Part shown: positions 2,363-24,136 of the stretch, one piece after another
Layout: each line of letters begins with the position of its first letter
Position numbering within the stretch: the first letter of the stretch is position 1
Origin: a virus
Taxonomy: Duplodnaviria; Heunggongvirae; Uroviricota; Caudoviricetes
IMG/VR virus record: IMGVR_UViG_3300028898_000252
Coordinates: 221,946-285,945 of that record
Length of the DNA: 64,000 nt
Reading direction: 5' to 3' (one strand)
Notes under the pieces: generated by a model
The model's input: the letters and a program-made list of their open reading frames with translations, nothing else
What the model was told of the DNA's origin: nothing
Database searches by the model: none
Position numbers and translations under genes: made by a program

Positions 2363-3505
2363 TCAATTGCCAGAAAAAAGATAATCATAAATTTCTGACA
2401 AAGAAGCAATTTTATCTAGTTTGGTTGATAGTCCATATTTGTCTTTTGTAATTGATCCGCAATAAACCTCGTACACTGGGTACGCTTCGAAGTTTTCTGT
2501 TGGACTTATGTCCCAAACTTTTACTGTTAAGTCTGAAAACTTTTCTCCAATTACAGAGAGTTCGGCGTAAATTTTTCCTGTTTTTGTTGTTTTTAATATT
2601 GCTTTTCTTAAAATAAACCAAACTTGTTCTGTGATCTTTTTCTTTTCTCCTTCTTCAAGAAAATCGATTTCTCTAATCTCATCAACGCTTATAAGATTCA
2701 TCTCTTTTATTGCTTCAAAATATTTTGGATCAAGAATTAAACTTAAGTCTGCGCTACCTGCAAGTTCGAGCCAATATTTAGTTTTTTCTGCTCTTGACCA
2801 ATCTTCTGTTTTTAATTCTTGTTCTTTTTTTATTAGTTCATCTAAAATTGGTTGAATGTTATTATTTTTCTTCTTTGCTGAAGTTTTCTTTAATAAATCA
2901 AAATTTTCGACAATAACATTAAACGCTTGTTTGTAATTTGATAATTCACCAGTTGGCGAAACAAGATTTAAACTATCGAGGGCCTCTAAGCAAATAAGAT
3001 TTGTTAATCCTTTACGATTAAATTTAGAATGTTTCCAAGAACCATCTTCTTTTATTAATAAGTCTTTTATATCTTTATAAGGTTTATTTCTGTTAATTTC
3101 TTCGAGCGCTGCTTCTCCAATTCCATCAATTGTTGTCAATCCTGGAATTATTGTTTTTTCTTTAAATGGATGCATTTCATATCCCGCACTTGAGAAGTTA
3201 ATATCTGGTTTTGAGAATTTATAGCCAAGTTTTTGTGCCTCTCTCATTGCAACAGCTTTGGGATCTTCTTGACCAACAACTTTACCCTTTTCAAGAGCGG
3301 CATAATCTAAACAAGCTGTTATCCATTCATCTGGATGATATGTTAAAAGATAGCTGCATTGAAAAGTAGCTATTGAATAAGAAATTGCGTGGCTATTAGA
3401 AACAGAAATATCATTAGCATAAAAAGTATGGTCTTCATGATCCACTTCCAAATCATAAGTTTCTTCAATACCATAAAACTCAACAGAATCGATCTCGTCT
3501 AGCAT
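2363..3505 (-). CDS. dnaE: DNA polymerase III alpha, fragment 4 (IntC3 + C-terminal extein)
   Basis: Begins with an intein C-fragment (TYDLEV...FYANDISVSN), then SHAISY (DnaE FNKSH.AY), PDINFS, GLTTIDGIG (HhH) and an OB-fold-like KTTKTGKIYA region. Confidence 0.93.
   Translation of the reverse strand: MLDEIDSVEFYGIEETYDLEVDHEDHTFYANDISVSNSHAISYSIATFQCSYLLTYHPDEWITACLDYAALEKGKVVGQEDPKAVAMREAQKLGYKFSKPDINFSSAGYEMHPFKEKTIIPGLTTIDGIGEAALEEINRNKPYKDIKDLLIKEDGSWKHSKFNRKGLTNLICLEALDSLNLVSPTGELSNYKQAFNVIVENFDLLKKTSAKKKNNNIQPILDELIKKEQELKTEDWSRAEKTKYWLELAGSADLSLILDPKYFEAIKEMNLISVDEIREIDFLEEGEKKKITEQVWFILRKAILKTTKTGKIYAELSVIGEKFSDLTVKVWDISPTENFEAYPVYEVYCGSITKDKYGLSTKLDKIASLSEIYDYLFSGN
3395..3505 (-). 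mobile_element. split intein C-fragment IntC3 (37 aa, acidic)
   Basis: Block F YDLEV, block G ending SN, +1 Ser. Confidence 0.9.
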
Positions 3506-3642
3506 TATTTTTTTTCCTTTACAAAAGCTTCTATTTTTTTGAGAACCGAATCAAAATCAGAATTAATCTCGCTTTCCCAAATTCGTAATATTTTCCATCT
3601 TATAACCTTAAATTCTTGATTACAGATCATACATTTTTGCAT
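3505..3642 (-). pseudogene. 45-aa internally deleted remnant of a Vsr-like homing endonuclease (not in the ORF track)
   Basis: Manual translation MQKCMICNQEFKVIRWKILRIWESEINSDFDSVLKKIEAFVKEKK*; the WKILRIWESEI tail matches YKTLYIWESEL and YKVLTLWESEI in the two intact endonucleases; TAATG overlap with dnaE-4. Confidence 0.7.
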
Positions 3643-3662
3643 TTGACTAAAACCAGATACAA

Positions 3663-3929
3663 TTATTTTACTATAATTTGAAGCTTTTGCTCTATTATTT
3701 CTTTAACAGTTTTCATGCCATTAGGTGTTTGAATTTTATGATCTAACGTACAGACTAATTCTTTACCAGACTTCGTTTTAATTTTAACCAAATTTTTCAC
3801 ACCATTTTCAAACTTATTTTTTACTTTTACAAATCCATTGACACTATTGACTAAATCTTGGTTTGGTATAACCTCTTTAATTTTCTTAAATCCGTTTTGA
3901 GTTTCTACAAGTGAATCTCCATGCAAACA
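3663..3929 (-). mobile_element. split intein N-fragment IntN3 (88 aa, basic)
   Basis: Block A CLHGDSLV, block B CTLDHKI, then a stop codon. Confidence 0.9.
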
Positions 3930-4889
3930 TTGGTTAAACGAATACGCAACCAATTTTTCCATTTTATCAAAAAACTTTGATGCCTTTTGTTCTTCAAGAC
4001 CTGCAAAGGTTTTTGTTTTTTCTACAAACTCAGCTTTTAACTTCTCACGTTCTTTTGCCGCTTTTTCCTTGTTGTTGATTTCTTTCTTTGTAAATGCTTT
4101 ACGAACGGAATCTGTTTCGTCGAGAGGAACTCCACATAAATGATGATAAATTAACTGTAACTGTTCTTGAAAAATTAAGAGTCCGCTTGTTGGTTCTAAA
4201 ACTTCTTTTAAGAATGGATGTTCATATTTAATCAAATCTGGGTTTGCTCTATTCGCTAAAAAGTCTCTATCTACTTTTAATCCTAGTGGGCCTGGGCGGT
4301 GTATTGAAGTCGCAATCGCAATATCTTTGACCGATCTAGGCTTCATCCTTTTCATAAAATCTTGTGTGTTTGGTTTTACGAACTGGAAAATCGAAATAAA
4401 ATTTCCATTCCAAAACACGTTTTCATAAACTTTAAGATCATCCATTGGATTATTGTCTGGTGACAAATGATCATTAAACCATTTTTGAACTTCTTCAAAT
4501 GGTATTTCGGATTCTTGTCTTCCTGTTTGTTTTTTTAATATTTTTCTTACCGTGTTTTCAAAAATACGGAGTGTTCCAAGTGCCAAAAAGTCAAACTTAA
4601 GAAATCCAAAATGTTCTAGCATTCTGAAGTTTACACCTTCTGTCCAAGGTGTTTGGAGCGATCTTTTCTCACCCTTGCCGCCAATAATCAGAGGCATATT
4701 CTGGTTTTCGATCGGCGAGTCAGTGAGGACAACGCCGCCAGCGTGGCGACCGCAATTTGAAATTAATCCAGCTTCGGTCACTATATTAGGCTGATCGTCA
4801 ATAAAAGCACCTGTTGGAATATTGTGGTGAATATCAAAGACAGGTTTCTTACCAATTTTTTGAATTGAGATTATTTTATTCTGTTTCAT
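3663..4889 (-). CDS. dnaE: DNA polymerase III alpha, fragment 3 (IntC2 + extein + IntN3)
   Basis: ...GLISN|CGRHAGGVV, catalytic KFDFL, IFQF, RPGP, IFQEQ, AYSFNQ|CLHGDS... Confidence 0.94.
   Translation of the reverse strand: MKQNKIISIQKIGKKPVFDIHHNIPTGAFIDDQPNIVTEAGLISNCGRHAGGVVLTDSPIENQNMPLIIGGKGEKRSLQTPWTEGVNFRMLEHFGFLKFDFLALGTLRIFENTVRKILKKQTGRQESEIPFEEVQKWFNDHLSPDNNPMDDLKVYENVFWNGNFISIFQFVKPNTQDFMKRMKPRSVKDIAIATSIHRPGPLGLKVDRDFLANRANPDLIKYEHPFLKEVLEPTSGLLIFQEQLQLIYHHLCGVPLDETDSVRKAFTKKEINNKEKAAKEREKLKAEFVEKTKTFAGLEEQKASKFFDKMEKLVAYSFNQCLHGDSLVETQNGFKKIKEVIPNQDLVNSVNGFVKVKNKFENGVKNLVKIKTKSGKELVCTLDHKIQTPNGMKTVKEIIEQKLQIIVK
4755..4889 (-). mobile_element. split intein C-fragment IntC2 (45 aa)
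   Basis: KIISIQKIGKKPVFDI...GLISN, +1 Cys. Confidence 0.88.
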
Positions 4890-5331
4890 CGCCGAATTCT
4901 CGCTCCAACTTGAGACCTATTATTTTTTGATTTTCTATTTCCAAAAGATAAGAATAGAGTTCAATTCCATCATAATTTATACCTAAAGAAAATTGTGGTT
5001 TAAATTTATTTGTTAGTTGGATATTATTAATCCAAATCCAAGTATCGTGTGGGGTAAGAACTTTTTCATCGCTAATTGTATAAATAGTAACAAACATCTC
5101 TTGAATCTCTTTTTCGGATAAGAACTTACATTTGCGTAAAAATTCAATAGACATATCTTGACAACTAATAGCAAATACATCTAATTCTTCAAGCAATATC
5201 AATTTTTCCGAATGTATAATTTTTCTAGTTTTTAACTGATCAACCAAACTATAAAACAATTCAAAAACAGCTTGAGACTTTTCTAAAGTTACTTTTTCAT
5301 AGTCTTCAGAAAAAAATTGCTTTATATCCAT
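4876..5331 (-). CDS. hypothetical protein lying between IntN2 and IntC2
   Basis: 151-aa ORF overlapping both flanking dnaE fragments; no recognisable motif. Confidence 0.6.
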   Translation of the reverse strand: MDIKQFFSEDYEKVTLEKSQAVFELFYSLVDQLKTRKIIHSEKLILLEELDVFAISCQDMSIEFLRKCKFLSEKEIQEMFVTIYTISDEKVLTPHDTWIWINNIQLTNKFKPQFSLGINYDGIELYSYLLEIENQKIIGLKLEREFGDETE

Positions 5332-5600
5332 CCGATTAGAGAATCCTCATTTGTTAAATCTTTTACCTGTTTCCAACCTTTATCGGTTTGAACTAAATGG
5401 TCTTCAGTTAGTTCCAAAACCTTTCCATCTAAAGTTTCAATTTTGTAAACTTCTTTTTCTCCATTTTCGACTTTAAAAAAGTCTGAACTATATTGAATTT
5501 CTCCAACGTTGTCAATAAATGCTATCTTGTCTTGCTCTGTAATTTCAGAGTATTTTTTCCAACCGCTGTTAGTCAACAGTAATGTGTCCTCCGTAAAACA
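5322..5600 (-). mobile_element. split intein N-fragment IntN2 (92 aa, acidic)
   Basis: CFTEDTLLLT..GWK, block B LTEDHLV, GWKQVKDL, then stop. Confidence 0.9.
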
Positions 5601-6725
5601 TGATTTTATTTGTTTGAATAATACTTTTATGCTCGCTTCAAGTTGTGGATAATCTTCCAATAGTTTGTTAAAAGTTGGAGAGTTTTTCTCGGCACTTTCA
5701 TAAGAAAGAAACCAAACACCTCGATCGAAACCATCTTGTTTCTTATCTTCGTCAAGTGTTTCTTTTTCAATTTTTTGAGTAATTGGATTGATTTCTTCAA
5801 ATGGAATTTGGTATAACCTAGCCAAATCTTTAATTAAGGATTTAAGTTGAAGTTGGTTATAGTTTGAAACAGGTAATACGCATTCTTCTCCAAAATGCTC
5901 GATAAGAATTTTAATTGCCTCTTCTCTGTCTGCACAATCGCTATCAATGTCAGGTAAGGAATTGTGGGATAAAACATACACGCCATCTTTTTTATCTGAA
6001 ACCCAAAATGTATGGTCGGCTTCCAATTTAATATCAATTAAAGTTAATGGGACTTTACCTTTTTCGATAGAAAAAATTTCCCAAGTTTTATTATCAGATC
6101 CATTCCCATAAAATCTTGGCTGAGTTTTTGTAAAACTATTATCTACTACTGATTTTATAAATTCAACAGATACATCTTTATATTTTACATCTAAAGGAAT
6201 TTTTTGTATATGTGGACAATTAAATTGTTGAGCTGTAATAAATTTATGATTTGAACTAGCTATCAATTTTCCAACGCTATAAAATGGTCTATGAAAACCT
6301 TTCAAACCAAGACTGGTATGATTTAGCCAATAACCATACGTAATTTCATACCAGTCTGTACGATCTTTTGTTAGATCAATTGCCACGGTAGGAAAATATT
6401 TTCCTGTATGAGTTTTAATTCGGTCTCCGATTTTAATATTTTTTAATTGTTTAGGACCCGTATAGGTCAAGACCCAAGAATCTTCTCCGAGACATGCTTT
6501 CTTTTTACTTAAAAACCTTTCAAACAAAAGTCCATGTTTAATTGGATCAACCTGGGTAATTCCTAAAAGGTAACAAACTAAAGATCCCGCACCAGAATTA
6601 TGCACAGGAAAACCCTCGACGTTATACGAACTTTTATTCTCAACAGAAAGGTCATAAACCTTTCCAGTATATTTTCTATATGTTTTTGATTTTAGTTTCA
6701 TTATGTTTACCAGAGGCCATTCCAT
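5322..6725 (-). CDS. dnaE: DNA polymerase III alpha, fragment 2 (IntC1 + extein + cis mini-intein + extein + IntN2)
   Basis: VHN|SGAGSLVCYLLGIT..DP....LLFERFL; catalytic PDIDSD; QIKS|CFTEDT; the true start may be the ATG at 6701. Confidence 0.94.
   Translation of the reverse strand: MEWPLVNIMKLKSKTYRKYTGKVYDLSVENKSSYNVEGFPVHNSGAGSLVCYLLGITQVDPIKHGLLFERFLSKKKACLGEDSWVLTYTGPKQLKNIKIGDRIKTHTGKYFPTVAIDLTKDRTDWYEITYGYWLNHTSLGLKGFHRPFYSVGKLIASSNHKFITAQQFNCPHIQKIPLDVKYKDVSVEFIKSVVDNSFTKTQPRFYGNGSDNKTWEIFSIEKGKVPLTLIDIKLEADHTFWVSDKKDGVYVLSHNSLPDIDSDCADREEAIKILIEHFGEECVLPVSNYNQLQLKSLIKDLARLYQIPFEEINPITQKIEKETLDEDKKQDGFDRGVWFLSYESAEKNSPTFNKLLEDYPQLEASIKVLFKQIKSCFTEDTLLLTNSGWKKYSEITEQDKIAFIDNVGEIQYSSDFFKVENGEKEVYKIETLDGKVLELTEDHLVQTDKGWKQVKDLTNEDSLIGWI
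5961..6494 (-). mobile_element. contiguous mini-intein (178 aa, no endonuclease) in dnaE fragment 2
   Basis: CLGEDSWV, ASSNHKF, LIDIKLEADHTF...LSHN|S, immediately before SLPDIDSD. Confidence 0.88.
6597..6725 (-). mobile_element. split intein C-fragment IntC1 (35-43 aa, basic)
   Basis: YTGKVYDLSVENKSSYNVEGFPVHN, +1 Ser. Confidence 0.9.
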
Positions 6726-7165
6726 TGTTCATTTATTTTGATATGAATTTTTGGCAAAGCTGTTATCGGAAATTCATAATCTATAAGGTCAAGAGAAAAT
6801 GCACCAGTTCTATATTTCAAATAATTTGGAATTTTTTTAAAGATATATTCCTTAATGTTAAAAACATTAGCTATCATTATTTCAATCTTTGTTTCAGACA
6901 AATATTCTCCATATTCAGCAATGTAAAACTCATGGTTTTGAAAACTTAATGAGAGTGTATACTTTGGCAAATGTCTTAAAAAGATAAAAGCTGATTTTTC
7001 TGTCGCTTCTTCGTTTCTGTTTTTTAAGTGGAAATCCAGATATTCCTGATCTTTAAATAAACTTTCAACATCTGCTTTCAGTTCGGACACACGTTCCATT
7101 ATTTTATCATGTTGTGGGTGCGTCACATTGAGTTTTTCACAAATGAGTTTTATATTATATTTCAT
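6707..7165 (-). CDS. hypothetical protein
   Basis: 152-aa ORF overlapping both neighbours. Confidence 0.55.
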   Translation of the reverse strand: MKYNIKLICEKLNVTHPQHDKIMERVSELKADVESLFKDQEYLDFHLKNRNEEATEKSAFIFLRHLPKYTLSLSFQNHEFYIAEYGEYLSETKIEIMIANVFNIKEYIFKKIPNYLKYRTGAFSLDLIDYEFPITALPKIHIKINEQWNGLW

Positions 7166-7563
7166 AACAGTTTTAGCTCTCTAGTCAGCGGATCAATCTT
7201 CTCGCTAGAGTGTGGTCCTATAGCTAAGCATGTTTTAGTTGGCTGTCCATGAAACTCAGTTAATCCCGCGTCGGTTATTAAATTTACGGTCAACCCCGTC
7301 TCTTTTGCTGCTTGATACAATTCTATCAATTCTTTTTCTGTTTCGACATAAACGGCAACTTTTTTAAAATTGCCATCGATCCAGGAAATTTCTTCTTCAT
7401 CTAAAAGATCAATAGCTTTTTTTTCAGGACTGTTTCTAATCCTTTGAGTTAGCCATTTTATACTTGCGTGGGCAAGTTGGGCAGCTATTTTACCTTTTCT
7501 AACATTTAAGTCTTTTCTCCACACAAGAACTTGTTTTATATCATTTTCCATTTTTACATCCAA
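7162..7563 (-). CDS. pth2: peptidyl-tRNA hydrolase, Pth2 type
   Basis: KQVLVWRKDL...GKIAAQLAHAS, KKVAV, DAGLTE, TCLAIGP. Confidence 0.92.
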   Translation of the reverse strand: MDVKMENDIKQVLVWRKDLNVRKGKIAAQLAHASIKWLTQRIRNSPEKKAIDLLDEEEISWIDGNFKKVAVYVETEKELIELYQAAKETGLTVNLITDAGLTEFHGQPTKTCLAIGPHSSEKIDPLTRELKLL

Positions 7564-7931
7564 TCTCCGAAGTTTTCAACTTTCATTTCTGAAGGAAACT
7601 CATCCTCTTGAAAAGGTTTTGTCTCGATCATAATAGGGTTTTTATTTGAAACAAATTTTAAATATTCTCTACAGGAAACTCCCAAAACTCTTTCCTGAAT
7701 ACCTTTTTCAGTTAACAGTGTGTATAAACCATAAAGCATTAATCCGCTATTATAGTTTGGATCTAAGTGGTAACTTAGTTTATATTTTTCAAAAACGTTA
7801 GTTACTAAAAGTTTTTTGTTTCCCAATATCTCTTGTTCTATTTTCTTTTTGACTTCTTCAAACTTTGATTTAAATGAAGGATCTTTTAATATAGAAAGAA
7901 GCTCTTCTTTTGTTTTGTCGTAGTTTATCAT
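7554..7931 (-). CDS. hypothetical protein
   Basis: 125-aa ORF overlapping both neighbours. Confidence 0.55.
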   Translation of the reverse strand: MINYDKTKEELLSILKDPSFKSKFEEVKKKIEQEILGNKKLLVTNVFEKYKLSYHLDPNYNSGLMLYGLYTLLTEKGIQERVLGVSCREYLKFVSNKNPIMIETKPFQEDEFPSEMKVENFGDWM

Positions 7932-8767
7932 ATTGCTATCTCTAGTTCAGAATTGATTTTTTGCGGTTTATCAAAATTGGCGAATTCAAAATCATCGATA
8001 TTAAACTCGTAAAAACTTTTGCTTTGTTTTAAAGTAAAATTTGGCTGTTCTTGTAACGATTCTCTTTTTATGATTTCGTTTGCCGCATTTAAATGCCTAT
8101 CGTAAATATGAAGATTATGAACATAGTGGCAGAATTTGCCTGGTTTGTAACCAAGATCCGAGGCAACCATTAACTGTAAAGCATAATACTGTGCCTTGTT
8201 AATCCAGTTGGCCATAATATAATCTGAACTTCTTTGAATAAGAGTCATGTCAAGTATATAGTTTTTAGAGGTTAAGTCTTTTCGGACAGACCAAATTGTT
8301 TCAAATGCACAAGGATACAAACCTTCAGTTTCAAGAAGATCAGATTCTTGATATAGGTTAAGGATATGTCTTCTTCCGAATGGATTTTGTTTTAATCCAT
8401 GCAAAAGTTTATTCATTAAATCCCATTTTCTAACTGTTGCCCCATATCTTTGACCAATTGTTCCATTTCCAATTTCCCATTCATTCCACCAATTAATCCC
8501 AAGTTTTTTTGTATCTTCTAGTTTGGAAGATTGAAGTTGATAAATCCAAAAAATTTCTTTTATTCCTGATTTAACTGCTGTGTTTCTAAGTGTTGTAAAT
8601 GGCAATTCACCATTTTCTATATCATATTCTTCAAACACTTGTGTTACAAACAAACTATTCGCAGGAGTTCCATCTTTATATTTCGGTCTTGGATTTTCAT
8701 CTTTATTACCTTTCGTTATTAGTTTATATAAATTTTGTTTATAGTAGATATCTGCTTTTGCAAGCAT
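7928..8767 (-). CDS. thyA: thymidylate synthase
   Basis: IGQRYG, FGRRH, LYPC (catalytic Cys), QRSSD, N..QY, HIYDRH. Confidence 0.93.
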   Translation of the reverse strand: MLAKADIYYKQNLYKLITKGNKDENPRPKYKDGTPANSLFVTQVFEEYDIENGELPFTTLRNTAVKSGIKEIFWIYQLQSSKLEDTKKLGINWWNEWEIGNGTIGQRYGATVRKWDLMNKLLHGLKQNPFGRRHILNLYQESDLLETEGLYPCAFETIWSVRKDLTSKNYILDMTLIQRSSDYIMANWINKAQYYALQLMVASDLGYKPGKFCHYVHNLHIYDRHLNAANEIIKRESLQEQPNFTLKQSKSFYEFNIDDFEFANFDKPQKINSELEIAI

Positions 8768-8768
8768 T

Positions 8769-9176
8769 TTATTCTTTTTCTCCTTTTAGATTAGTAAAGT
8801 TAGAAATAAAACGAGAAATTTTTTCATCTTTTCCCATTTCTGGAATCAATGGGAATTCTTCTAAGCCATTTTCTGTTAAAAACTTTAACCATTCAAGATC
8901 ATATCTGCCTTTTTCTTTTCCAAGAAAAATCATATTTTTATTTTTTGGAAATACATATTCCAATTTAAAAGAATAGTTGACATCATCTATCCAAAAAACT
9001 TTTAATGGTCTAAATCCTTCTTCGTCATAAACCTGTACTGGCCCACTTACATTATGAACTTTTCCATTTAAACGGATTTCAATCATACCTGTTTCCCATT
9101 TAATTTTTCCCGTATAGTTTTCAGGAGGTTTCTCGTCGTTACATAATATTATTATATTATTCATTTTATTATTCAC
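8769..9176 (-). CDS. hypothetical protein, paralogue of 12637..13272
   Basis: One degenerate HN.SGP repeat and a shared C-terminal GKEKG.Y.LEWLKFLTENG..EFP..PEM block. Confidence 0.65.
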   Translation of the reverse strand: MNNKMNNIIILCNDEKPPENYTGKIKWETGMIEIRLNGKVHNVSGPVQVYDEEGFRPLKVFWIDDVNYSFKLEYVFPKNKNMIFLGKEKGRYDLEWLKFLTENGLEEFPLIPEMGKDEKISRFISNFTNLKGEKE

Positions 9177-9673
9177 TTTATTTCATTCTCTATTATTTTA
9201 GATTGCTTCCAATGCTCAGAAGTTTGAACATGATTTTCTCTTACGAACTTTAAATTAAATCTTCTAAAATCTCTATAAGGAAAGGAATCTGTAGGTCGAA
9301 TAACATAACCTTCACACTCATCTCCATTATTAGAAATGGGCCGATAAAGATCTTTCAAAATTTTTTCGTTATAAATTCCTCTATAAAGAATTTCTGGTGT
9401 TGGTACTTCTAACAAGTCTGCCCATTCTTTAGTTTCATCCCAAGAAAGACAAGTGTTGTATTCATTCCAAACGGAAAGAAGGTAATGGTAGTCTTTTAAA
9501 CTTTTATAATGAATACTATGCTTTGCGAAAACATTTTCGAAACAAAATCTCCAACCCTTTGGTAAATCATTTTTTATTGTGGAATGAAAAGCTTTAATTC
9601 TTGTTCTTGATGGATGATTTTCTAAACTATCTAGCGAACGTGCATGTATGTAATTGCTTATAACCAGAAACAA
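9173..9673 (-). CDS. RNA ligase, C-terminal part of an interrupted gene
   Basis: YIHARSLDS..HPSR, ENVFAKHSIHY, EGYVIR (motif IV), KFVRENHVQT (motif V); no clear start, possibly non-functional. Confidence 0.8.
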   Translation of the reverse strand: MFLVISNYIHARSLDSLENHPSRTRIKAFHSTIKNDLPKGWRFCFENVFAKHSIHYKSLKDYHYLLSVWNEYNTCLSWDETKEWADLLEVPTPEILYRGIYNEKILKDLYRPISNNGDECEGYVIRPTDSFPYRDFRRFNLKFVRENHVQTSEHWKQSKIIENEIK

Positions 9674-9691
9674 TTTTTACCAATTTCCATA

Positions 9692-13801: not shown

Positions 13802-13804
13802 ATG

Positions 13805-16232: not shown

Positions 16233-16585
16233 TTAAACGAAACCTCAATTCGAGGCAAGTCAATTATTTTTTTAACTTTTAAAAAGTCACGTAATCTATT
16301 AAATTGTTTTTTGCAAAGAAAAAATTCTTGGTCTTTCCAAGTTCTAAGTTTAGAAAGTTCTTCGTTTTGTAGTAGATACGTGGCATAAATTACAATTCTG
16401 TAAATTGGTTCATTTGAAATAAATTTAAATTTTTCTTTTAGTTTTCGAATCGTGTAAATATTTTGAATTAGAATAAAGTATTCAGTTCCAGTAAAACGAA
16501 AGCATTGATCTTTAAGGAGATATAATTTCTTTTCATTCTCGTCGGTATAAAAAACATCAAACTTTTCTTCTTTAAATTTTTTCAT
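16229..16585 (-). CDS. paralogue family A member
   Basis: IYTIRKLK..F....P.Y...LPRIEV. Confidence 0.6.
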   Translation of the reverse strand: MKKFKEEKFDVFYTDENEKKLYLLKDQCFRFTGTEYFILIQNIYTIRKLKEKFKFISNEPIYRIVIYATYLLQNEELSKLRTWKDQEFFLCKKQFNRLRDFLKVKKIIDLPRIEVSFK

Positions 16586-16968
16586 TTAAGATTTACCTCA
16601 ATTTTTTGAGGTTGAATAATATTAGATGGGTTTGCCCAATTTAAAAGTTTTTTCAAGTTTTGAATATCTAAATAAAGGCGATTATCAATTGAAATACAAT
16701 TTCCATAATAGGTTTTATTGCTCAAGTAAACTTTTAAATCGTTCTGTAAATCTTCAAAAGTGGAATCGAAAATAACGACTTCGAATAAAGGCATATTAAT
16801 TTTTATCGAAAACAAAGCTTTTATTTTACGAGAAGAAAGAATTCTATTAAGAATAATAATTGATGTTTTAAACTCATAAAAATCTAAAATATCAGAACTT
16901 TGGATAAATGAAAGTATATTCGATCTAAATCTGAAAAAATTGATTCTCGGTTTTTCTTTTTTTCTCAT
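16582..16968 (-). CDS. paralogue family A member
   Basis: ILSSRKIK..F...QPQKIEVNLK. Confidence 0.6.
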   Translation of the reverse strand: MRKKEKPRINFFRFRSNILSFIQSSDILDFYEFKTSIIILNRILSSRKIKALFSIKINMPLFEVVIFDSTFEDLQNDLKVYLSNKTYYGNCISIDNRLYLDIQNLKKLLNWANPSNIIQPQKIEVNLK

Positions 16969-17336
16969 TTCAGATTTACCTCAATTTTTTGAGGTTCAAA
17001 AGTGTGTAATATGTTTAATACTTTTTTAATTCGATTAAGATTAACTTGATCAATAAAAAGATGGGAAAATTGCTTTTCTAAAAATGGTCGATTAAATGTT
17101 ATAATATGTTTATCTAATTTTGAAAATAACATTATTTCATACATGCTTTGACATGCAAAAGATTTTGTTTTTTGTTTCCATTTTCTTGGAGTTAAAATTT
17201 TAACAACTGAAAGACAGTCATTTTTACAAAATACGCTCGAATAATGATCTTTAAATTCATCTATTCGCCTCTCAAACTTAACATATTCTTTAATACCTTT
17301 ACATGTTGCTGTTTGCCAAAATTCTATGCTATTCAT
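16965..17336 (-). CDS. paralogue family A member
   Basis: ILTPRKWK...EPQKIEVNLK. Confidence 0.6.
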   Translation of the reverse strand: MNSIEFWQTATCKGIKEYVKFERRIDEFKDHYSSVFCKNDCLSVVKILTPRKWKQKTKSFACQSMYEIMLFSKLDKHIITFNRPFLEKQFSHLFIDQVNLNRIKKVLNILHTFEPQKIEVNLK

Positions 17337-17689
17337 TTTAGTTGAATCTCAATTTTCGGGAGCGGATAGAAATTTTTAGGTTTTACGAAATTTAAATAAG
17401 TAAATAAATCATATGTTTTGATAAACACTTCTGACGAATTGGAAAGAGAAACGGCTTCATTTATCACGTTAGTTGTACTGTAGGGAATTAATATTTGATA
17501 TAATGAAAAATTTGGTTTAAATTTAAACATCGAATTAATTTTTCTTGGGGAGAGTATAGCATTTACTTTATATGTCCACACATAAGGACTATAGAAAGGA
17601 ATAGTCAAATTTATTTTATGAATTTCGAACGCGACCTTATCGCAACAAGCGCGAATAAAAACATGTATTTCAGTTTTATCTCTATTCAT
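17333..17689 (-). CDS. paralogue family A member
   Basis: ILSPRKIN..F...LPKIEIQLK. Confidence 0.6.
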   Translation of the reverse strand: MNRDKTEIHVFIRACCDKVAFEIHKINLTIPFYSPYVWTYKVNAILSPRKINSMFKFKPNFSLYQILIPYSTTNVINEAVSLSNSSEVFIKTYDLFTYLNFVKPKNFYPLPKIEIQLK

Positions 17690-18103
17690 TTATTTAAATC
17701 CTAAAAATTCTAAAGAATCGCCATCCGTGATAAATAAAGAATCATTATTATTTAATAATGAGTTCCATAGGCGTTTTGCTTCTTTTGATTGATTTTGAGA
17801 AGCCCAAAGTTTTAAACTAAATTTAATTTTAAGCCAGATCGCGGCACTTTTATAAAGTTTTTTTCCATAGCCTTTGCCGCGAAATTCTTTTTCAATAAAA
17901 GAATAATCTACATAGGGTTTATTAAACACATTTTCTTTCCACCATCTAATATAAGTTTGCCTTTTTTCTATCTGTTTAAGTCTATTCAGACTCACTTCTG
18001 TTGGTACAATAATAGATAAAAAACCAACTTCTGTTTGGTCTTTAATGAAATGAAATGAATATTTCTCAATAGATGGAAAGCAAGTAATGAAAATACGTTC
18101 CAT
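17690..18103 (-). CDS. GNAT-family acetyltransferase
   Basis: Motif A EFRGKGYGKKLY; QS.EA..LW. Confidence 0.75.
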   Translation of the reverse strand: MERIFITCFPSIEKYSFHFIKDQTEVGFLSIIVPTEVSLNRLKQIEKRQTYIRWWKENVFNKPYVDYSFIEKEFRGKGYGKKLYKSAAIWLKIKFSLKLWASQNQSKEAKRLWNSLLNNNDSLFITDGDSLEFLGFK

Positions 18104-18109
18104 CAGCCA

Positions 18110-18137
18110 AAGATAAAACCAAAATATTAGTTGTCAA
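18110..18137 (-). promoter_or_regulatory. sigma70-type promoter, probably giving a leaderless mRNA
   Basis: TTGACA-N16-TATCTT, ATG 6 nt downstream. Confidence 0.55.
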
Positions 18138-18138
18138 T

Positions 18139-18177
18139 AAAAGAAAATGCCCCGCAGATTTATATCCACGAGGCATT
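18139..18177 (-). terminator. intrinsic terminator
   Basis: GCCTCGTGGAT-ATAA-ATCTGCGGGGC stem (with G-U pairs) followed by ATTTTCTTTT. Confidence 0.7.
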
Positions 18178-18216
18178 CAACTAAGAGTTTTTTTGGTTTT
18201 TTTTAAGAAACTAAAA

Positions 18217-18591
18217 TTAAACTCGTTCCGATTTCATCTCTTTGATGTATTTCACAAAGAAACTGCCCGCTGATTGGCGTCGACGCCAATTTTGAGGAAT
18301 CTGTTTCGAAACATTCCGATACAGATATCGAGAACCATCTTTCATGGAAACAGTTAAGTTTCCAGTTGTTGAATCAGTTGAGTTTGCAACCCAACGAAAA
18401 CCAGTAACAAATGAAGAATCTTTAAAATTAAAGATCATTGTCGAGCTGCTCAACCGAGCAGTTCGTTTTGCCGCTGGTTTCCGCGACGTTGAATTTGTTG
18501 TACCAGTTGTTCGCGATGTTTTTGTAACCTTTCGCGAAGAAGTTGGTTTACGAGTTGATTTTTTTGTAGTTTTGGTAGTTGATTTTCTCAT
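18217..18591 (-). CDS. KTSC domain protein with K/R/T/S-rich histone-tail-like N-terminus
   Basis: About 50-aa basic low-complexity N-terminus; DSSF...LTVSMKDGSRYLYRNV.......QSAGSFF..YIK. Confidence 0.75.
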   Translation of the reverse strand: MRKSTTKTTKKSTRKPTSSRKVTKTSRTTGTTNSTSRKPAAKRTARLSSSTMIFNFKDSSFVTGFRWVANSTDSTTGNLTVSMKDGSRYLYRNVSKQIPQNWRRRQSAGSFFVKYIKEMKSERV

Positions 18592-18617
18592 GTGTTGTCT
18601 GTCTTTCTAGGTCGACC

Positions 18618-18645
18618 ATTCTAAGCACCGCGGCGCAGCGGTCAA
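18618..18645 (-). promoter_or_regulatory. sigma70-type promoter
   Basis: TTGACC-N16(GC-rich)-TAGAAT. Confidence 0.65.
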
Positions 18646-18667
18646 GAGGCAATCGTTATGCCAGTTT

Positions 18668-18901
18668 TCACTCTTCTTTATACTTAAACAAATACTGTTT
18701 GTATCTTTCTACAATTAATCCTAGTTCTGCTGATGTTAGCCCAACAGAATCCATTTTATCTTTTCCAACATAAACAAAATATATTTCTGAATATCTTTGT
18801 CTTGCATTGCCAAATTCGTCGCTTAATAAAAGCGTTCTCGCTCTTATCACAAGTTCTTGTTTTTCTCCAATTGTTTCGTCATGCAGGATTGTTTGTTTCA
18901 T
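18668..18901 (-). CDS. hypothetical protein
   Basis: 77-aa ORF overlapping the upstream gene. Confidence 0.45.
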   Translation of the reverse strand: MKQTILHDETIGEKQELVIRARTLLLSDEFGNARQRYSEIYFVYVGKDKMDSVGLTSAELGLIVERYKQYLFKYKEE

Positions 18902-19241
18902 GTTCTATTACCATTTCCTCGATTACTTCATTTTTTTGTTCTGGTTCAATTTTCGAATCTAGAATTTTTTTTATTCCTAATATTGAATATCCGTTAATGT
19001 CCAAATAAGCATCTAAACAGCCTTCTTCTGGTGGTAAAAGACTACTATTTGCAATTCTTGTTAGTTTGTCTAACACTCTTATAATAAACATTAGGTGTTG
19101 GTATTGATCATCTACAATTCCATCGGGAAACAATATTTTTAAATGATCAGCTGTTTTATTAAAACTACTGCCATATGCTCGATCTTTTTTCTCAAGTAAA
19201 TCTGCTTGCAACACAGCTATTTCATGAAAACTTTTTGTCAT
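18879..19241 (-). CDS. DUF1599 / nucleotide-modification-associated all-alpha domain protein
   Basis: KKDRAYGSSF, IRVLDKLTR, DAYLDINGY. Confidence 0.7.
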   Translation of the reverse strand: MTKSFHEIAVLQADLLEKKDRAYGSSFNKTADHLKILFPDGIVDDQYQHLMFIIRVLDKLTRIANSSLLPPEEGCLDAYLDINGYSILGIKKILDSKIEPEQKNEVIEEMVIEHETNNPA

Positions 19242-19278
19242 ACTTCATGTGTAGCGCCTCGTTTTCGCGGTAGCAATA

Positions 19279-19632
19279 CTAGGAAGTAATAACGGTAATA
19301 CTGTTATTTATAACTTTTATCCCTTTTCTTTTTAAATCTTGGAGCATTTTTTTGGTAAAAAATTTTAAGACACTTTCATTTTTTTCGTAAACTACATACG
19401 CAATATATATTTTTTTTCTTTTAAACCTTAAAAATCTTTTCTCGGTTGCAATATATATTTTTTCTTTTTTATTTTTTGCTAATCTTTTAAGTCGATTTTG
19501 CAAGATGCAAATTAATCTTCTTTTTGTTAAAAGACCATCAATCTTAACAATAGAAATTCCTTTAAGGGGAGCAAAATTAGAATTTAATTGAAGTGTTAGA
19601 AAATTATATCCGTCATTATTTTGATTCGACAT
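19279..19632 (-). CDS. hypothetical basic protein
   Basis: 117-aa ORF. Confidence 0.45.
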   Translation of the reverse strand: MSNQNNDGYNFLTLQLNSNFAPLKGISIVKIDGLLTKRRLICILQNRLKRLAKNKKEKIYIATEKRFLRFKRKKIYIAYVVYEKNESVLKFFTKKMLQDLKRKGIKVINNSITVITS

Positions 19633-19906
19633 TGGTCTCGTTTTTCATCTCAGAAGGCAAATTAATGTATACTACGATTATAGTATATTTACCCCGCATT
19701 GTTTGCGACAAACTTAAATATTCTTTGATCGATTTTTCAGCCATTTCCCACGAATCAAACAATGGATCAGTTTTTCCATCAATTGTAACCGCCTCAAAAA
19801 ACTCATTAACAATTCTAAATTTTTTTACAGGAACAAGTTTAAAATTATGTGAACTAATTTTTCTTGGTGATAAATCGTTTGACAGCGGTTTTGGTTTTTG
19901 ATCCAT
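19616..19906 (-). CDS. hypothetical protein
   Basis: 96-aa ORF. Confidence 0.5.
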   Translation of the reverse strand: MDQKPKPLSNDLSPRKISSHNFKLVPVKKFRIVNEFFEAVTIDGKTDPLFDSWEMAEKSIKEYLSLSQTMRGKYTIIVVYINLPSEMKNETNVESK

Positions 19907-19934
19907 TTGAATATAAATATTAATTTAGTTTTAT

Positions 19935-20324
19935 TTAAGTGCCAACTATAATTTTTTGAGGCTCAACAATAAAATTCCCTATATATTTTTTTAATTTTCT
20001 ATAAGTCTTAAATGTAATGATCCACTTACAATAATATTTGTCAACAAACGGTAATCCCTTCATTTCTATGAATTTATAATTTTTATTATCCATAAAACTC
20101 AATGAAACTAAAGTTCGATCAAGTTCTTTCTTGTATAAGGACTTTATTTTTCGAGGAGTTAAAAACTCATGTATTTTTAAAAAAAAGTCAAATGTATCGA
20201 ATATCATTCTAACATCAGAAAAAGCTTTTGTGTAAATATCATAGTGAGAAAAAGCAATTATTAAATGGTTAGGGTTAATACCTTTTTTAATACTAAATTT
20301 AATTTCTGTATTTTTCTTTTTCAT
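19935..20324 (-). CDS. paralogue family A member
   Basis: FLTPRKIK...EPQKIIV. Confidence 0.6.
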   Translation of the reverse strand: MKKKNTEIKFSIKKGINPNHLIIAFSHYDIYTKAFSDVRMIFDTFDFFLKIHEFLTPRKIKSLYKKELDRTLVSLSFMDNKNYKFIEMKGLPFVDKYYCKWIITFKTYRKLKKYIGNFIVEPQKIIVGT

Positions 20325-20707
20325 ATATTTACTTTTATTGTAGGTATTGGTTTTAATAGTTTTTTATTTACAAGAAAATCATAACACTCAGCAAAAATAA
20401 AAAACTTTTGTTTAATTGAGAAATGTTCATACATTATTGTTGGAAAATAAAAATCTATAATTTCTTTCTCGTCTCTGTATTTTCCCATATCATTTATTTG
20501 ATAAATGTCACTAAAAAATCTTTTAACTTTTCTTTTTGAAATAATTTTTACAGGAACTAATTCTTTAATTTCTTCTTCTGTTAGTGAGACAATGTTAAAA
20601 AAACATTCATTTTCTTCTTCATCTTTGATAATTTCAAAAAACATTGTATAGGTTGTTACCCTGCCCACTTTTGTTATACAGCTTTTTATCTGTTGTCTTG
20701 TGAGCAT
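20321..20707 (-). CDS. paralogue family A member (divergent)
   Basis: IISKRKVK..F...IPTIKV. Confidence 0.5.
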   Translation of the reverse strand: MLTRQQIKSCITKVGRVTTYTMFFEIIKDEEENECFFNIVSLTEEEIKELVPVKIISKRKVKRFFSDIYQINDMGKYRDEKEIIDFYFPTIMYEHFSIKQKFFIFAECYDFLVNKKLLKPIPTIKVNI

Positions 20708-20745
20708 AATTTTTAATACCTCTCATACAATAACTAATCCTTATT

Positions 20746-21060
20746 TCAATTCTTTGGGACCATTATAGACAAAATATGTTTACAAAATTCTTCGTAATTT
20801 ATAATTTTTTCTTTTCTGTTTAAACTTTCAAAATGGACAATATTGATTAACGCATCAAGTTCAAAATAAATATTATGTGATACTAAAGCAACTATTAAAA
20901 CTAATAATATTCTATTGACTAATTCCATTTCTGGAACTTTGTACTTACTTTCTTCAAAGAATTTATTTAAATCATGAATTTTAGCTATCGCTATTTCTTC
21001 TTGAAAATTTGTAAGATCATCAAGCAAACCAGACTCTAAAATTGCTTCTAAAGAATCCAT
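20746..21060 (-). CDS. hypothetical protein
   Basis: 104-aa ORF. Confidence 0.5.
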   Translation of the reverse strand: MDSLEAILESGLLDDLTNFQEEIAIAKIHDLNKFFEESKYKVPEMELVNRILLVLIVALVSHNIYFELDALINIVHFESLNRKEKIINYEEFCKHILSIMVPKN

Positions 21061-21905
21061 TCGTGGGCCTCGGATAATGTGTTTAAATGAACCTCTAATA
21101 CTTTATCAAAGTTTTTATGATAGCCGCCTGCGAGATTCCAAGCAACAGGAATTTTGTTTTCTTTAGCAAATTCAAAAACTATCTTGTCTCTTTGATGCAG
21201 TTCTTTTGTTGTAAAATATCCTCCGTATGGATCTTCAATGTGAGGATCTGCGCCAGCTTGATACAAAATTAAATCACAATATTTTGTGAATCTATTCATT
21301 TCATTTTTTAATGTCACTTCGAAATCATAAAATAATGTTTTTTTATCAAAACTATCAACAACTCCACCAAAAGTATAGTGGTGGATAAAATCTTTTAAAT
21401 TTAATCTTTTGATTATATCATCCGTTCCATTTCCATAATGGGCATCAATATCAATAATTGAAATTAGAATATCTGGGTATTGCTGCTTTAGCTTAATCGC
21501 AGCTAGTATAAGCCCATTAAAAGTACAAAACCCCATACATTCATTATATGTTGCGTGGTGAAATCCCGATGTTGGAGAACAAGAAAAAGTTTTGTTTTCG
21601 AATGCAGATTTTGCCGCAGCATAAAATGAAGCATTTGTCCAATGCAGAGATTCTGCTACTTCTTGAAGTTTGTTTTCAAACCCATTTTGTTTTTCGCAAT
21701 TTAACACCGCATCAACATGTTGTTGATCATGGCCTAAATAAAAATCATTTCTTGAATATGGTTCAAAATTATCAATCATTTCGACATAATCAAAACTTTT
21801 TATTTCTTCAACAAATCGTTTTGGTTTTCCTGCCGACGGAGAAAAACTAATGTTGTTTGCGACATTCTGTTTATCGTTATAGAACACTTTTATTTTTTTA
21901 TTCAT
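21048..21905 (-). CDS. Zn-dependent histone deacetylase-family (HDAC/AcuC-like) amidohydrolase
   Basis: GFHHA, GFCTFN, DIDAHYGNGT, QAGADPHIED, GGY. Confidence 0.92.
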   Translation of the reverse strand: MNKKIKVFYNDKQNVANNISFSPSAGKPKRFVEEIKSFDYVEMIDNFEPYSRNDFYLGHDQQHVDAVLNCEKQNGFENKLQEVAESLHWTNASFYAAAKSAFENKTFSCSPTSGFHHATYNECMGFCTFNGLILAAIKLKQQYPDILISIIDIDAHYGNGTDDIIKRLNLKDFIHHYTFGGVVDSFDKKTLFYDFEVTLKNEMNRFTKYCDLILYQAGADPHIEDPYGGYFTTKELHQRDKIVFEFAKENKIPVAWNLAGGYHKNFDKVLEVHLNTLSEAHEWIL

Positions 21906-21915
21906 TGTTATCTTT

Positions 21916-22263
21916 CTACAGTAGGATTATATTGTCTTTTATCATTTCAATTATTTCTTTCAATAATTGTTGATTGGAATATTCATCGATTACTAGAGAC
22001 GAAGATAATTTTAAGAGTTCGTTAATTTCAGGAATATTACCAACTATTTTTATGGTAGTTGTAATAACATCTCTTGCGGATTTAAAATCTATTTTTTGAC
22101 GTGTTGTCCAAGCAGAATATTTATAATTGTGAATTTTTAAACAATTCTTCGAACAACATAAAACATTTGCCGATCGATCGGCAAATTTAATATCTTGAGA
22201 AGGTAAAAACAACATTCCACAGTTTGAGCAAAAAATTTGGTAGAATATCATTTTTGGTCCCAA
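21916..22263 (-). CDS. hypothetical Cys-rich (Zn-ribbon) protein
   Basis: CSNCG...CCSKNC; directly downstream of dnaE-1. Confidence 0.5.
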   Translation of the reverse strand: MGPKMIFYQIFCSNCGMLFLPSQDIKFADRSANVLCCSKNCLKIHNYKYSAWTTRQKIDFKSARDVITTTIKIVGNIPEINELLKLSSSLVIDEYSNQQLLKEIIEMIKDNIILL

Positions 22264-22285
22264 ATATAGATATTACTTTAAAAAA

Positions 22286-22576
22286 TTAAAAACATACTTT
22301 TTCGAATTCATCATCATCTTTTAAGTCAGATGCCGCGACCCAACCACGATTTTTCGTAAGAAATTTATGATCTTTTGTGCAAGAAATTATCGTACCATCA
22401 TCAAATTCGAGTTCTACTATCTCTTCGTCTTGAAGATCGTGATCCCAACATTTTAAAACTTTTTGAATTGAGCCATCGTGGGTATAAACCCATTCTTCTT
22501 TTGAAGAAGAAAACTCTTCAATATTCAATTTTCTTTTTGAAGAAGGAATATGTATTTTTGTTCCTGGTAAGAAACA
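22286..22576 (-). mobile_element. split intein N-fragment IntN1 (96 aa, acidic)
   Basis: CFLPGTKI, block B CTKDHKFLT, RGWVAASDL, then stop. Confidence 0.92.
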
Positions 22577-24136
22577 ACCTCTGCCAGCTCCTAATAACAT
22601 TTTTTTACCAATCAAATTAAGACTTTGGGCACAAGTCAAAAAATACTTTTCAAGTTTTAAATGTTTGATAACGTCAAGTTCTTCAAGAGCGCGGTCAACA
22701 TATTTTGTATCTTCAATTTTCTTTTTTGATTCTAGACCAGACATAACCAAATCGACGAGCTCGTTAAAACTTATTTCATCTTCATTCAAACCATCGGATT
22801 TAAAATCTTTAATTTTATTTTCTGATATTAACTTATTCAGACTTGGAAGTTTTGGAGTTTTATCGAATTCTATTTTCTTGTCAATTGCTTCAAAAGCAAT
22901 TTCATGCGTTCGTTCAATTGCGTCGCAAACTATTTCATGATATTCTTCGGTATAAATTTCAGGATAATCTTTAACACAATAGTTTTTATAAGCGTTCCAC
23001 ATTTGAGTGGCATTCTTTGGATATAACTCATGTTCCAACTCTTCAATTTTTTGTGGAATTGTATTTGGATCAATTTCTTTAAGTTTATCGACAGTCATTC
23101 TTGCGAGAGTTTTATAAATAATTCTTTCTTTCCAGTGTTCGGGATTTGGATAGTGGCAATCTGCGGTCGCAATAACTTTTATTCCAGTTCTTTTTGATAA
23201 TTCAATTAAATGATAATTCAGCAAATGTTGATATGGAACTTTGTTAAACTGTATTTCAAGAAAAAAATTATCTTTATTGCCTCCTAAAACGTATATAAAT
23301 TGCTCGGCAAGTAGTTTTAGTTCAGATTGAATCTGATCGAATTTGTAAGTTTTTAGTTTATCGACATCACTCTTGTAATCTTCTTCATTTAGGTTAAGAT
23401 CTAAAAAATGTTTTATGAGTATTTTATTTGGTTCGCCACCTAAACAAGCGCTGCTTGCTATTATATTACCATTAGCATTTTGCTTTATTAAGTCGAAATC
23501 CATACGTGGAAAAAAATAAAATCCTTCTTTATAAGAAAGAGAAGTTAGTTTAAACAAACTATGTAAACCTGCTGTGTTTTTTGCAAGCAATACTAAATGA
23601 CTTCTTGAACGAAGAGGATCTCTAACTTTGTTGGATTTAGTTTCTTCTTCATTTTCAACAACAGTTGTTTCAACATTTCCTTCAGCGTCTTTCAAAAGCG
23701 CAACTTCTTTATTTAAAAGTTCGTAGTTTTCAACTTCTGCTATAAATTCTGCTTTTCGCTTTTCTTCAATTTCATCAAAAATAATAAACTCATCTGTTGA
23801 TTTTTTTGGTTTTGCTTTATTTGTTTTTTTATTTTGCTTTTCTATTTCTTTTCTTTTTGAAGTTTCTTCTTTTAAAGAAGACCACTCCGATATGGATGGA
23901 ATAAAATAAGACTCAATTCCATAAAGAATTTTGAATTCTTTACCTTCTTTTTTAAGACCCTCGTAGTATTTGTAAGAGTGAGAAAAAGTGTTCATGTTTC
24001 CATGATCTGTAATTGCGTGAGCTCCAAGTTCATTTTTTTGGGCAAAATCAAAATGATCCTGGGGAAGTCCGATGGCATCGCCAATACTTCCGTTTGAATG
24101 TGCATGTAGATTCACATACTTTTTAGGCTCTCTCAT
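22286..24136 (-). CDS. dnaE: DNA polymerase III alpha, fragment 1 (PHP domain + IntN1)
   Basis: NLHAHS..S.GDA, ITDHG, GIE, HLVLLAKN, SACLGGE, TADCHY, EL.VI....YFL, GAGRG|CFLPGT. Confidence 0.95.
   Translation of the reverse strand: MREPKKYVNLHAHSNGSIGDAIGLPQDHFDFAQKNELGAHAITDHGNMNTFSHSYKYYEGLKKEGKEFKILYGIESYFIPSISEWSSLKEETSKRKEIEKQNKKTNKAKPKKSTDEFIIFDEIEEKRKAEFIAEVENYELLNKEVALLKDAEGNVETTVVENEEETKSNKVRDPLRSRSHLVLLAKNTAGLHSLFKLTSLSYKEGFYFFPRMDFDLIKQNANGNIIASSACLGGEPNKILIKHFLDLNLNEEDYKSDVDKLKTYKFDQIQSELKLLAEQFIYVLGGNKDNFFLEIQFNKVPYQHLLNYHLIELSKRTGIKVIATADCHYPNPEHWKERIIYKTLARMTVDKLKEIDPNTIPQKIEELEHELYPKNATQMWNAYKNYCVKDYPEIYTEEYHEIVCDAIERTHEIAFEAIDKKIEFDKTPKLPSLNKLISENKIKDFKSDGLNEDEISFNELVDLVMSGLESKKKIEDTKYVDRALEELDVIKHLKLEKYFLTCAQSLNLIGKKMLLGAGRGCFLPGTKIHIPSSKRKLNIEEFSSSKEEWVYTHDGSIQKVLKCWDHDLQDEEIVELEFDDGTIISCTKDHKFLTKNRGWVAASDLKDDDEFEKVCF

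Follow-up and report, generated by a model that had tools for sequence, protein, structure and literature searches.

A phage dnaE gene in four pieces, predicted to be joined into one replicative polymerase by three split inteins and a cis intein

To our knowledge, natural protein trans-splicing is a matter of two pieces, as in cyanobacterial DnaE, Nanoarchaeum PolB, and the fractured genes of phages. Ordered joining of more than two pieces has been an engineering feat, for which orthogonal inteins had to be picked by hand. The cyanobacterial split DnaE (Ssp/Npu DnaE intein) reportedly goes back to work by Wu et al. in 1998 and by Caspi et al. in 2003. According to PMC2874743, which cites Liu & Yang 2003, dnaE of Trichodesmium erythraeum contains one split intein together with cis inteins. 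Fractured genes of environmental phage-like DNA were defined by Dassa, London, Stoddard, Schueler-Furman & Pietrokovski 2009 (PMC2677866), whose short reads included the loci DnaE-1, DnaE-2, and DnaE-3 with differing integration points, one of them with part of a second intein. Moreover, ligation of at least three polypeptides by several divergent split inteins has been engineered (Pinto, Thornton & Wang 2020; PMC7090010), as has tandem trans-splicing (PMC7210297, PMC12707363). Here, we describe the replicative polymerase gene dnaE of an uncultured jumbo phage, which is distributed over four open reading frames (ORFs) in a stretch of 64,000 nucleotides (positions 221,946–285,945 of a 390,884-bp IMG/VR virus record, hereafter the window). 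As judged from sequence, the four encoded precursors are very probably spliced by three split inteins and one cis intein into a single DnaE-type polymerase of 1292 residues.

All four ORFs lie on the minus strand (Table 1) and are arranged as extein 1–IntN1, IntC1–extein 2a–cis intein–extein 2b–IntN2, IntC2–extein 3–IntN3, and IntC3–extein 4, with IntN and IntC denoting the N- and C-terminal intein halves. The split inteins occupy sites 1, 2, and 3, while the cis mini-intein occupies site b within fragment 2. Each piece has its own start and stop codon and is free of internal frameshifts and stops, and fragments 2, 3, and 4 lie within 4.4 kb on one strand. The ORF positions and the assignment of intein halves to their ends in the initial annotation proved exact, and cutting at the motifs named there reproduces its extein total (520 + 34 + 120 + 275 + 343 = 1292 residues, 148.8 kDa). 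IntC1 is probably 35 rather than 43 residues long, because relatives start fragment 2 at a Met that corresponds to residue 9 of the window ORF (position 6701).

The Pfam domains PHP, DNA_pol3_alpha, DNA_pol3_finger, and HHH_6 follow one another in order across the pieces, with intein/Hint matches at the ORF ends. On the NCBIfam model PRK05673 the pieces are colinear (4–365, 364–394 and onward, 505–751, and 751–1010), and no single fragment reaches the DnaE family cut-off alone. The intein models TIGR01445 (N-terminal) and TIGR01443 (C-terminal) match as well, TIGR01445 scoring above its cut-off for all three IntN. The exteins were joined by script and aligned to the uninterrupted dnaE of four related phages (L010, L012, L013, and L016; 44–49% identical). 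None of the four junctions shows a gap in these alignments, and the same holds for those with Taq and E. coli Pol III alpha; the restoration of conserved motifs at every joint, as initially proposed, is reproduced. PDIDSD and KFD, which align to E. coli D401, D403, and D555, indeed reside on different genes, namely on fragment 2 (extein 2b) and fragment 3 (extein 3). The joined product combines PHP domain, palm with three catalytic Asp, fingers, and helix-hairpin-helix (HhH) region in the order of a DnaE-type Pol III alpha.

Like the published fractured genes, this dnaE is a replication gene split into separately translated ORFs of the same strand with a canonical split-intein half at each end, and in relatives a free-standing endonuclease gene lies between the halves (the 311-residue ORF at site b of L007). 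In contrast, the published loci have one split intein and two pieces, whereas three split inteins, a cis intein, and four pieces are found here. The halves are neighbors at sites 2 and 3, as is usual for fractured genes, while 15.6 kb and about 30 genes separate those of site 1. Moreover, the window holds no recognizable endonuclease gene between paired halves: Site 2 contains an ORF of 151 residues without a recognizable nuclease (ORF151), site 3 a spacer of 157 nt, and site 1 unrelated genes. The DnaE loci of PMC2677866 may be glimpses of genes like the four-piece dnaE.

With cyanobacterial DnaE, the locus shares the host protein, the placement of halves at distant loci (site 1), and the FNKSH motif targeted at site 3; with Trichodesmium dnaE, the combination of split and cis inteins in one gene. 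The cyanobacterial gene is, however, split once into two pieces, and IntN3 is closest to gp41-1 and not to DnaE inteins. Nor is one of the pairs a cyanobacterial allele, as IntN1 matches Ssp/Npu DnaE weakly (E ~1e-5) and sits at a different site. Site 3 lies four residues downstream of the cyanobacterial junction, which we take to be AEY/CFN(KSH), a slash here and below marking the splice junction. The gp41-1 intein has a reversed polarity with basic IntN and acidic IntC, and pair 3 resembles it in this respect; in contrast to the present inteins, gp41-1, NrdJ-1, and Spl DnaX inteins occur at other sites and in other host proteins. The fixed order, and internal fragments that begin with an IntC and end with an IntN, recall engineered multi-fragment ligation, but the present set is natural and, by its conservation, kept under selection within one essential enzyme. 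Full-text searches, which reached few of the subscription journals, turned up no natural protein reported to be assembled by two or more split inteins. To this extent the novelty considered in the initial annotation stands, while uniqueness does not: Relatives encode the gene in four or five pieces, and the short reads of Dassa et al. 2009 had already revealed DnaE split inteins at three different places. By its sequence features, the locus is a multi-split fractured gene with apparently catalytically competent joints throughout; it recurs in uncultured phages and is not categorically new.

All four inteins possess Cys1, a block B (T/S)xxH motif, and the block F Asp (in YDL, FDI, and YDL of IntC1, IntC2, and IntC3), and each ends in Asn, followed by Ser or Cys at +1. 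The lengths of the halves, 96/43 (or 35), 92/45, and 88/37 residues, fit the canonical split site (IntN ~90–105, IntC ~35–45 residues). By residues and split position, pairs 1, 2, and 3 are putative class 1 canonical split inteins. In 10 homologues of fragment 2 from various metagenomes, the splicing residues of IntC1 and IntN2 are invariant, including YxGKVYDLSV...VHN/SGAGS in IntC1 and C376, T440, D442, and H443 in IntN2. IntN1 is 60–73% identical in relatives, and its Cys1 as well as the block B Thr and His are invariant in four sequences. At site 2, Cys occupies the +1 position, which is Leu or Val in homologues without an intein; this exchange implies that the joint must splice. The cis intein is predicted to adopt the HINT fold (predicted local distance difference test, pLDDT, 76.5), with gp41-1, Prp8, and DnaB inteins as top PDB matches. 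Complex prediction covered pair 1, whose genes are 15.56 kb apart, and yielded a score of 0.71 for IntN1 with IntC1 (best control 0.00), which shows likeness rather than proof of binding and may partly mirror solved split inteins. This mark is attained by 58 of 80 solved complexes and by 2 of 110 mismatched pairs; the runs agree in at least 87% of contacts, and the partner pLDDT is at least 66.

The same layout of fragment 2, ORF151, fragment 3, spacer, and fragment 4 occurs in L025 and L026, which stem from other samples, at ~91% identity and without the cis intein; the latter is also absent from P0010, a 90% identical relative. L027 and L028 likewise show the arrangement in independent samples. 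In three further records, fragment 1 with its IntN1 lies on the same strand as fragment 2, 14.2 kb (G001), 11.3 kb (G002), and 10.9 kb (G003) away; for L007–L009 this distance is ~11–14 kb. The ratios of non-synonymous to synonymous substitution (dN/dS) were taken from the closer L025 (IntN3 84% identical); values for the intein halves are given in Table 1, and those of the exteins range from 0.02 to 0.18. Against L007, L008, and L009, the synonymous differences (pS) are saturated at 0.65–0.8, and non-synonymous (pN) and synonymous differences were compared alone: pN amounts to 0.07–0.27 in the intein halves and is alike in the exteins. L007 alignments for IntN3 in this comparison were spurious matches to IntN2 and were rejected. 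The intein halves are, by these measures, under purifying selection about as strong as that on the polymerase. A profile search of the complete 390,884-bp genome returned no second dnaE, all six matches being pieces of the four ORFs, and a family B polymerase (PolB) was not found in the genome. The initial annotation had named an intact dnaE elsewhere, with neutrally evolving fragments, as evidence that would speak against it; instead, this is the sole dnaE, and its intein halves show dN/dS of 0.05–0.15. Together, the recurrent layout and purifying selection rule out an assembly artefact and strongly argue against a decaying gene. Thus, the four-piece ligation initially proposed agrees with the data in all its sequence-level predictions, i.e., colinearity, splicing residues, independent assemblies, and selection.

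Table 1. Elements of the four-piece dnaE locus, its splice sites, and intein ORFs of relatives (window positions unless a relative is named; dN/dS against L025).
Feature	Position	Strand	Length	Content	Profile match or E. coli position	Net charge	dN/dS
Fragment 1 ORF	22286..24136	(-)	616 aa				
Extein 1	22577..24136	(-)	520 aa	PHP and palm start; ends GAGRG	PRK05673 4–365; ends at G363		
IntN1	22289..22576	(-)	96 aa	Cys1, TKDH; stop codon 22286–22288	TIGR01445 1–83	-8	
Fragment 1–2 interval	6726..22285	(-)	15.56 kb	~30 unrelated genes			
Fragment 2 ORF	5322..6725	(-)	467 aa				
IntC1	6597..6725	(-)	43 aa as ORF	Ends VHN, then +1 Ser	TIGR01443	+3	0.15
Extein 2a	6495..6596	(-)	34 aa	SGAGS...SKKKA	Residues 364–397		
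Cis mini-intein	5961..6494	(-)	178 aa	Cys1, SSNH; ends SHN, then +1 Ser; without endonuclease domain			
Extein 2b	5601..5960	(-)	120 aa	SLPDIDSD...KQIKS; both catalytic Asp of PDIDSD			
IntN2	5325..5600	(-)	92 aa	Cys1, TEDH; stop codon 5322–5324		-10	0.065
ORF151	4876..5331	(-)	151 aa	Between IntN2 and IntC2; overlaps neighbors by 10 and 14 nt			
Fragment 3 ORF	3663..4889	(-)	408 aa				
IntC2	4755..4889	(-)	45 aa	Insertion between blocks F and G; ends ISN, then +1 Cys		+1	0.049
Extein 3	3930..4754	(-)	275 aa	CGRHAGG...AYSFNQ; remaining palm (KFD, third catalytic Asp) and fingers	Residues 508–758		
IntN3	3666..3929	(-)	88 aa	Cys1, TLDH; stop codon 3663–3665		+7	0.093
Fragment 3–4 spacer	3506..3662	(-)	157 nt	44-codon mini-ORF			
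Fragment 4 ORF	2363..3505	(-)	380 aa				
IntC3	3395..3505	(-)	37 aa	Zero basic residues; ends VSN, then +1 Ser	TIGR01443	-12	0.075
Extein 4	2366..3394	(-)	343 aa	SHAISY... to end; HhH and C-terminal region; stop codon 2363–2365	HHH_6; PRK05673 751–1010		
Site 1				Interrupts the deoxynucleoside triphosphate (dNTP)-binding loop	G363/S364		
Site b (cis intein)				Three residues upstream of catalytic D401	397/398		
Site 2				Ahead of HAGG	N507/A508		
Site 3				Within the FNKSH motif	K758/S759		
Split intein at site b and PDID/SD intein, relatives	L007:6912–7403, 8264–9451; L008:6829–7314, 8175–9365; L028						
Ser1 intein at site 3, relatives	L008:9860–11122; L009:9863–11122, 12085–13257; L027:7953–11330						

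We infer from these features that splicing itself takes place. Four precursor proteins would be made, i.e., extein 1–IntN1, IntC1–extein 2a–[cis intein]–extein 2b–IntN2, IntC2–extein 3–IntN3, and IntC3–extein 4. The mini-intein of fragment 2 would excise itself in cis, while each IntN would assemble with its cognate IntC into a full HINT domain and undergo standard class 1 splicing: an acyl shift at Cys1 followed by transfer onto the Ser or Cys at +1, cyclization of the terminal Asn, and a last shift that yields the peptide bond. Splicing would thereby rebuild the GRG/S loop that binds dNTP, the catalytic motif PDIDSD, HAGG, and FNxSH. Since the inteins sit inside or beside active-site motifs, the enzyme is expected to be inactive until all joints are spliced. 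The correct order would require each half to react with its own partner only. Most critical are the combinations IntC1/IntN2 and IntC2/IntN3, which are tethered and would otherwise cyclize their fragment. The mis-pairing logic of the initial annotation is therefore sound, as both combinations do share a chain.

The three pairs are well diverged. The N halves are mutually 22–39% identical, with IntN2 and IntN3 at the upper end (39%), and the C halves can be aligned at blocks F and G only. The nearest solved relatives are NrdJ-1 (8ubs) and Ssp/Npu DnaE for IntN1, the Spl DnaX mini-intein (7cfv) for IntN2, and gp41-1 (6qaz) for IntN3, the matches to the three solved structures (E ~1e-6 to 1e-7) being distant and local. 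Pair 3 has a charge polarity opposite to that of pairs 1 and 2. In every relative examined, IntC1 and IntN2 are carried on one chain, and an arrangement so old and conserved indicates that cross-reaction of these tethered halves does not proceed at a harmful rate. As a rule, divergent natural split inteins are orthogonal. Five have served side by side in a single pot, and such joint function has been shown for inteins such as gp41-1 and NrdJ-1 (PMC7090010). On these grounds, we infer mutual orthogonality of the three pairs.

Several features weigh against four-piece splicing by orthogonal pairs. Pairs 1 and 2 share their polarity, both with an acidic IntN and with a charge of +6 and +5, respectively, in the first 15 residues of IntC; electrostatics consequently cannot explain how IntC1 spares the tethered IntN2. 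IntC2 and IntC3 lack the penultimate His and end in SN, a terminus shared by the highly active Npu DnaE intein, and the block F His is absent from IntC1. No clear Shine–Dalgarno sequence was found upstream of fragment 2. Finally, a PolA-like ORF with a sub-threshold domain match, described below, leaves some room for another polymerase activity.

The shared polarity of pairs 1 and 2 and the 39% identity of IntN2 and IntN3 would suit a scenario in which splicing occurs but the pairs are not strictly orthogonal, and the order is steered by kinetics, extein contacts, or the order of synthesis, while by-products such as cyclized fragment 2 or an extein 1–extein 3 skip product are tolerated or degraded. 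We consider this unlikely. Tethering of IntC1 and IntN2 would make even a weak cross-reaction efficient and costly, and the arrangement is nonetheless old, conserved, and strongly selected; in addition, the C halves cannot be aligned beyond blocks F and G, and the general behavior of divergent natural split inteins (PMC7090010) argues for orthogonality. The missing penultimate His of IntC2 and IntC3 might instead suggest that at least one joint stays unspliced, with intein halves serving as non-covalent docking modules of a multi-chain polymerase. This is a much less probable explanation, because Cys1, (T/S)xxH, terminal Asn, and the +1 nucleophile are present at every joint and invariant across relatives, the +1 Cys of site 2 is an intein-specific substitution, and an unspliced HINT domain of ~130 residues would occupy the dNTP-binding loop and adjoin the catalytic motifs.

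It is very improbable that selfish elements have destroyed the gene and that a host or other polymerase replicates the phage, even though invasion of the genome is heavy, with at least six further intein matches, endonuclease genes, and a recA that is also fractured, and the weak PolA-like ORF is present: Exteins and intein halves alike are under strong purifying selection across a divergence that saturates synonymous sites, frameshifts and internal stops are lacking, the catalytic motifs are intact, and neither another dnaE nor PolB is present. As the record is a metagenome assembly, a chimeric contig, sequencing errors, or gene calling might mimic gene breaks, an explanation to which we give next to no credence. 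Contigs from several samples and assemblies repeat the same breaks together with the matching intein halves (P0125 alone occurs on 16 contigs), and the breaks fall exactly at intein split points, with start and stop codons belonging to each piece. Splicing of four precursors into one polymerase therefore remains our preferred explanation.

Database proteins were classified by a BLAST-based site map and spot-checked by eye. Within the clade, sites 1 and 2 are fixed, while the remaining sites vary, and the survey of related phages suggested initially yields dnaE in three, four (L007), or five pieces (L008, L028). In L007 and L008, site b carries a split intein with a 311-residue endonuclease gene between its halves (HNH/endonuclease PHROGs for the L007 ORF). 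These two and L028 have an extra cis mini-intein at PDID/SD, which leaves a six-residue extein, SLPDID, with two catalytic Asp. An ORF of 161–163 residues in the L007 and L008 relatives contains just 34 polymerase residues, placed between IntC1 and another IntN. In L009, the PDID/SD intein is broken between blocks F and G (8033–8716 and 8744–9421), with a C-terminal piece of 18 residues (ending SIVSHN) on the next ORF; the break represents either an atypical split of natural origin, whose IntC is very short, or a nonsense or frameshift mutation that arose recently.

At site 3, L008, L009, L027, and L028 possess a split intein of another kind, which has Ser as nucleophile at both positions 1 and +1 (SLKS..., block B SMDH, TSN/S) and whose halves are separated by an ORF of 325–330 residues that belongs to no known family. 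The same Ser1 type of IntN was observed at the end of the more distant proteins P0037, P0154, and P0157. Site 3 is free of inteins in L007 and in about 20 database proteins of 664–673 residues. More distant metagenomic proteins comprise internal DnaE pieces with IntC and IntN at other pairs of sites. A sixth split site lies near extein residue 867 (LEPTYG region of E. coli), with IntN following ...ETAG or ...NEAG; the corresponding proteins P0174, P0175, P0030, and P0035 are internal fragments that start with IntC. None of the phages in GenBank shares the layout: No record there covers at least 80% of fragment 2, and fragment 3 is less than 60% identical throughout, which indicates that there is no cultured relative.

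ORF151, which separates IntN2 from IntC2, matches no Pfam or PHROG family and no nuclease family, and its structure model (pLDDT 53) is unusable. An ORF is present at this position in L007, L008, L009, L025, and L027 with 20–75% identity, and dN/dS amounts to 0.21. It is constantly found between these two halves in the clade and diverges fast; it may represent a homing endonuclease, new or degenerate, or a protein of another kind. The mini-ORF in the spacer between fragments 3 and 4 shows a weak match (30% over 56 residues) to the C-terminus of a 340-residue window ORF (9692–10714) and is not kept as an ORF in L025, while L009 and L027 have the 325–330-residue ORF there. Loss of an endonuclease gene may have left this spacer behind.

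The record has direct terminal repeats, a completeness rated at 100%, and a GC content of ~30%. A replication and nucleotide-metabolism module surrounds dnaE, with class II ribonucleotide reductase, a DnaB-like helicase, a 5'-3' exonuclease, recA, a gp32-like single-stranded DNA-binding protein, thymidylate synthase, and dihydrofolate reductase. The latter two lie in the interval between fragments 1 and 2, together with an S8 peptidase, a piece of RNA ligase, an HNH endonuclease, and a deacetylase-like protein. The RNA ligase domain ORF (9173–9673, minus strand) covers profile positions 23–171 only, its N-terminal part apparently missing; upstream on the same strand follow the 340-residue ORF mentioned above, which matches DUF7487, and the HNH endonuclease ORF (10749–11297). 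The PolA-like ORF (34555–35583, minus strand, 342 residues) matches positions 206–343 of the 381 in the family A polymerase profile with 25 bits, below the cut-off of 34, and may be a polymerase fragment or remnant.

Within this replication module, recA is fractured as well. It occupies two ORFs (30765–33429, minus strand), an N-terminal part of 261 residues corresponding to RecA profile positions 6–199 and an ORF of 628 residues whose last part corresponds to positions 200–262, with an intein C-terminal match at ~31296–31367. At least five more intein matches lie outside the window, at ~387.1–387.5, 206.2–207.5, 184.5–185.8, 350.8–351.8, and 146.5–146.8 kb of the genome, within open frames of 515–900 residues. 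Beyond dnaE, the genome contains at least six intein matches in total, in addition to the fractured recA and endonuclease genes, and is thus unusually rich in inteins.

If the split inteins do work side by side in this way, no protein known to be assembled by trans-splicing would be more fragmented, with four pieces here, five in relatives, and exteins of down to 34 and 6 residues, and the inteins would provide ready-made orthogonal ligation tools. A conserved essential polymerase in four or five pieces would show that evolution has solved the ordered joining of multiple pieces. Its inteins, among them halves that share a chain without reacting, would have to coexist in a single cytoplasm, which would permit a direct test of what sets partner specificity. 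We lean toward the view that the phage clade holds a natural set of three to four co-working split inteins whose partner choice follows a specificity code beyond charge. Moreover, single sites provide a natural series from no intein via a cis mini-intein to split inteins with and without an endonuclease gene, which bears on the origin and fixation of split inteins. For the biology of the phage, the arrangement suggests that polymerase activity depends on the joint presence of four gene products.

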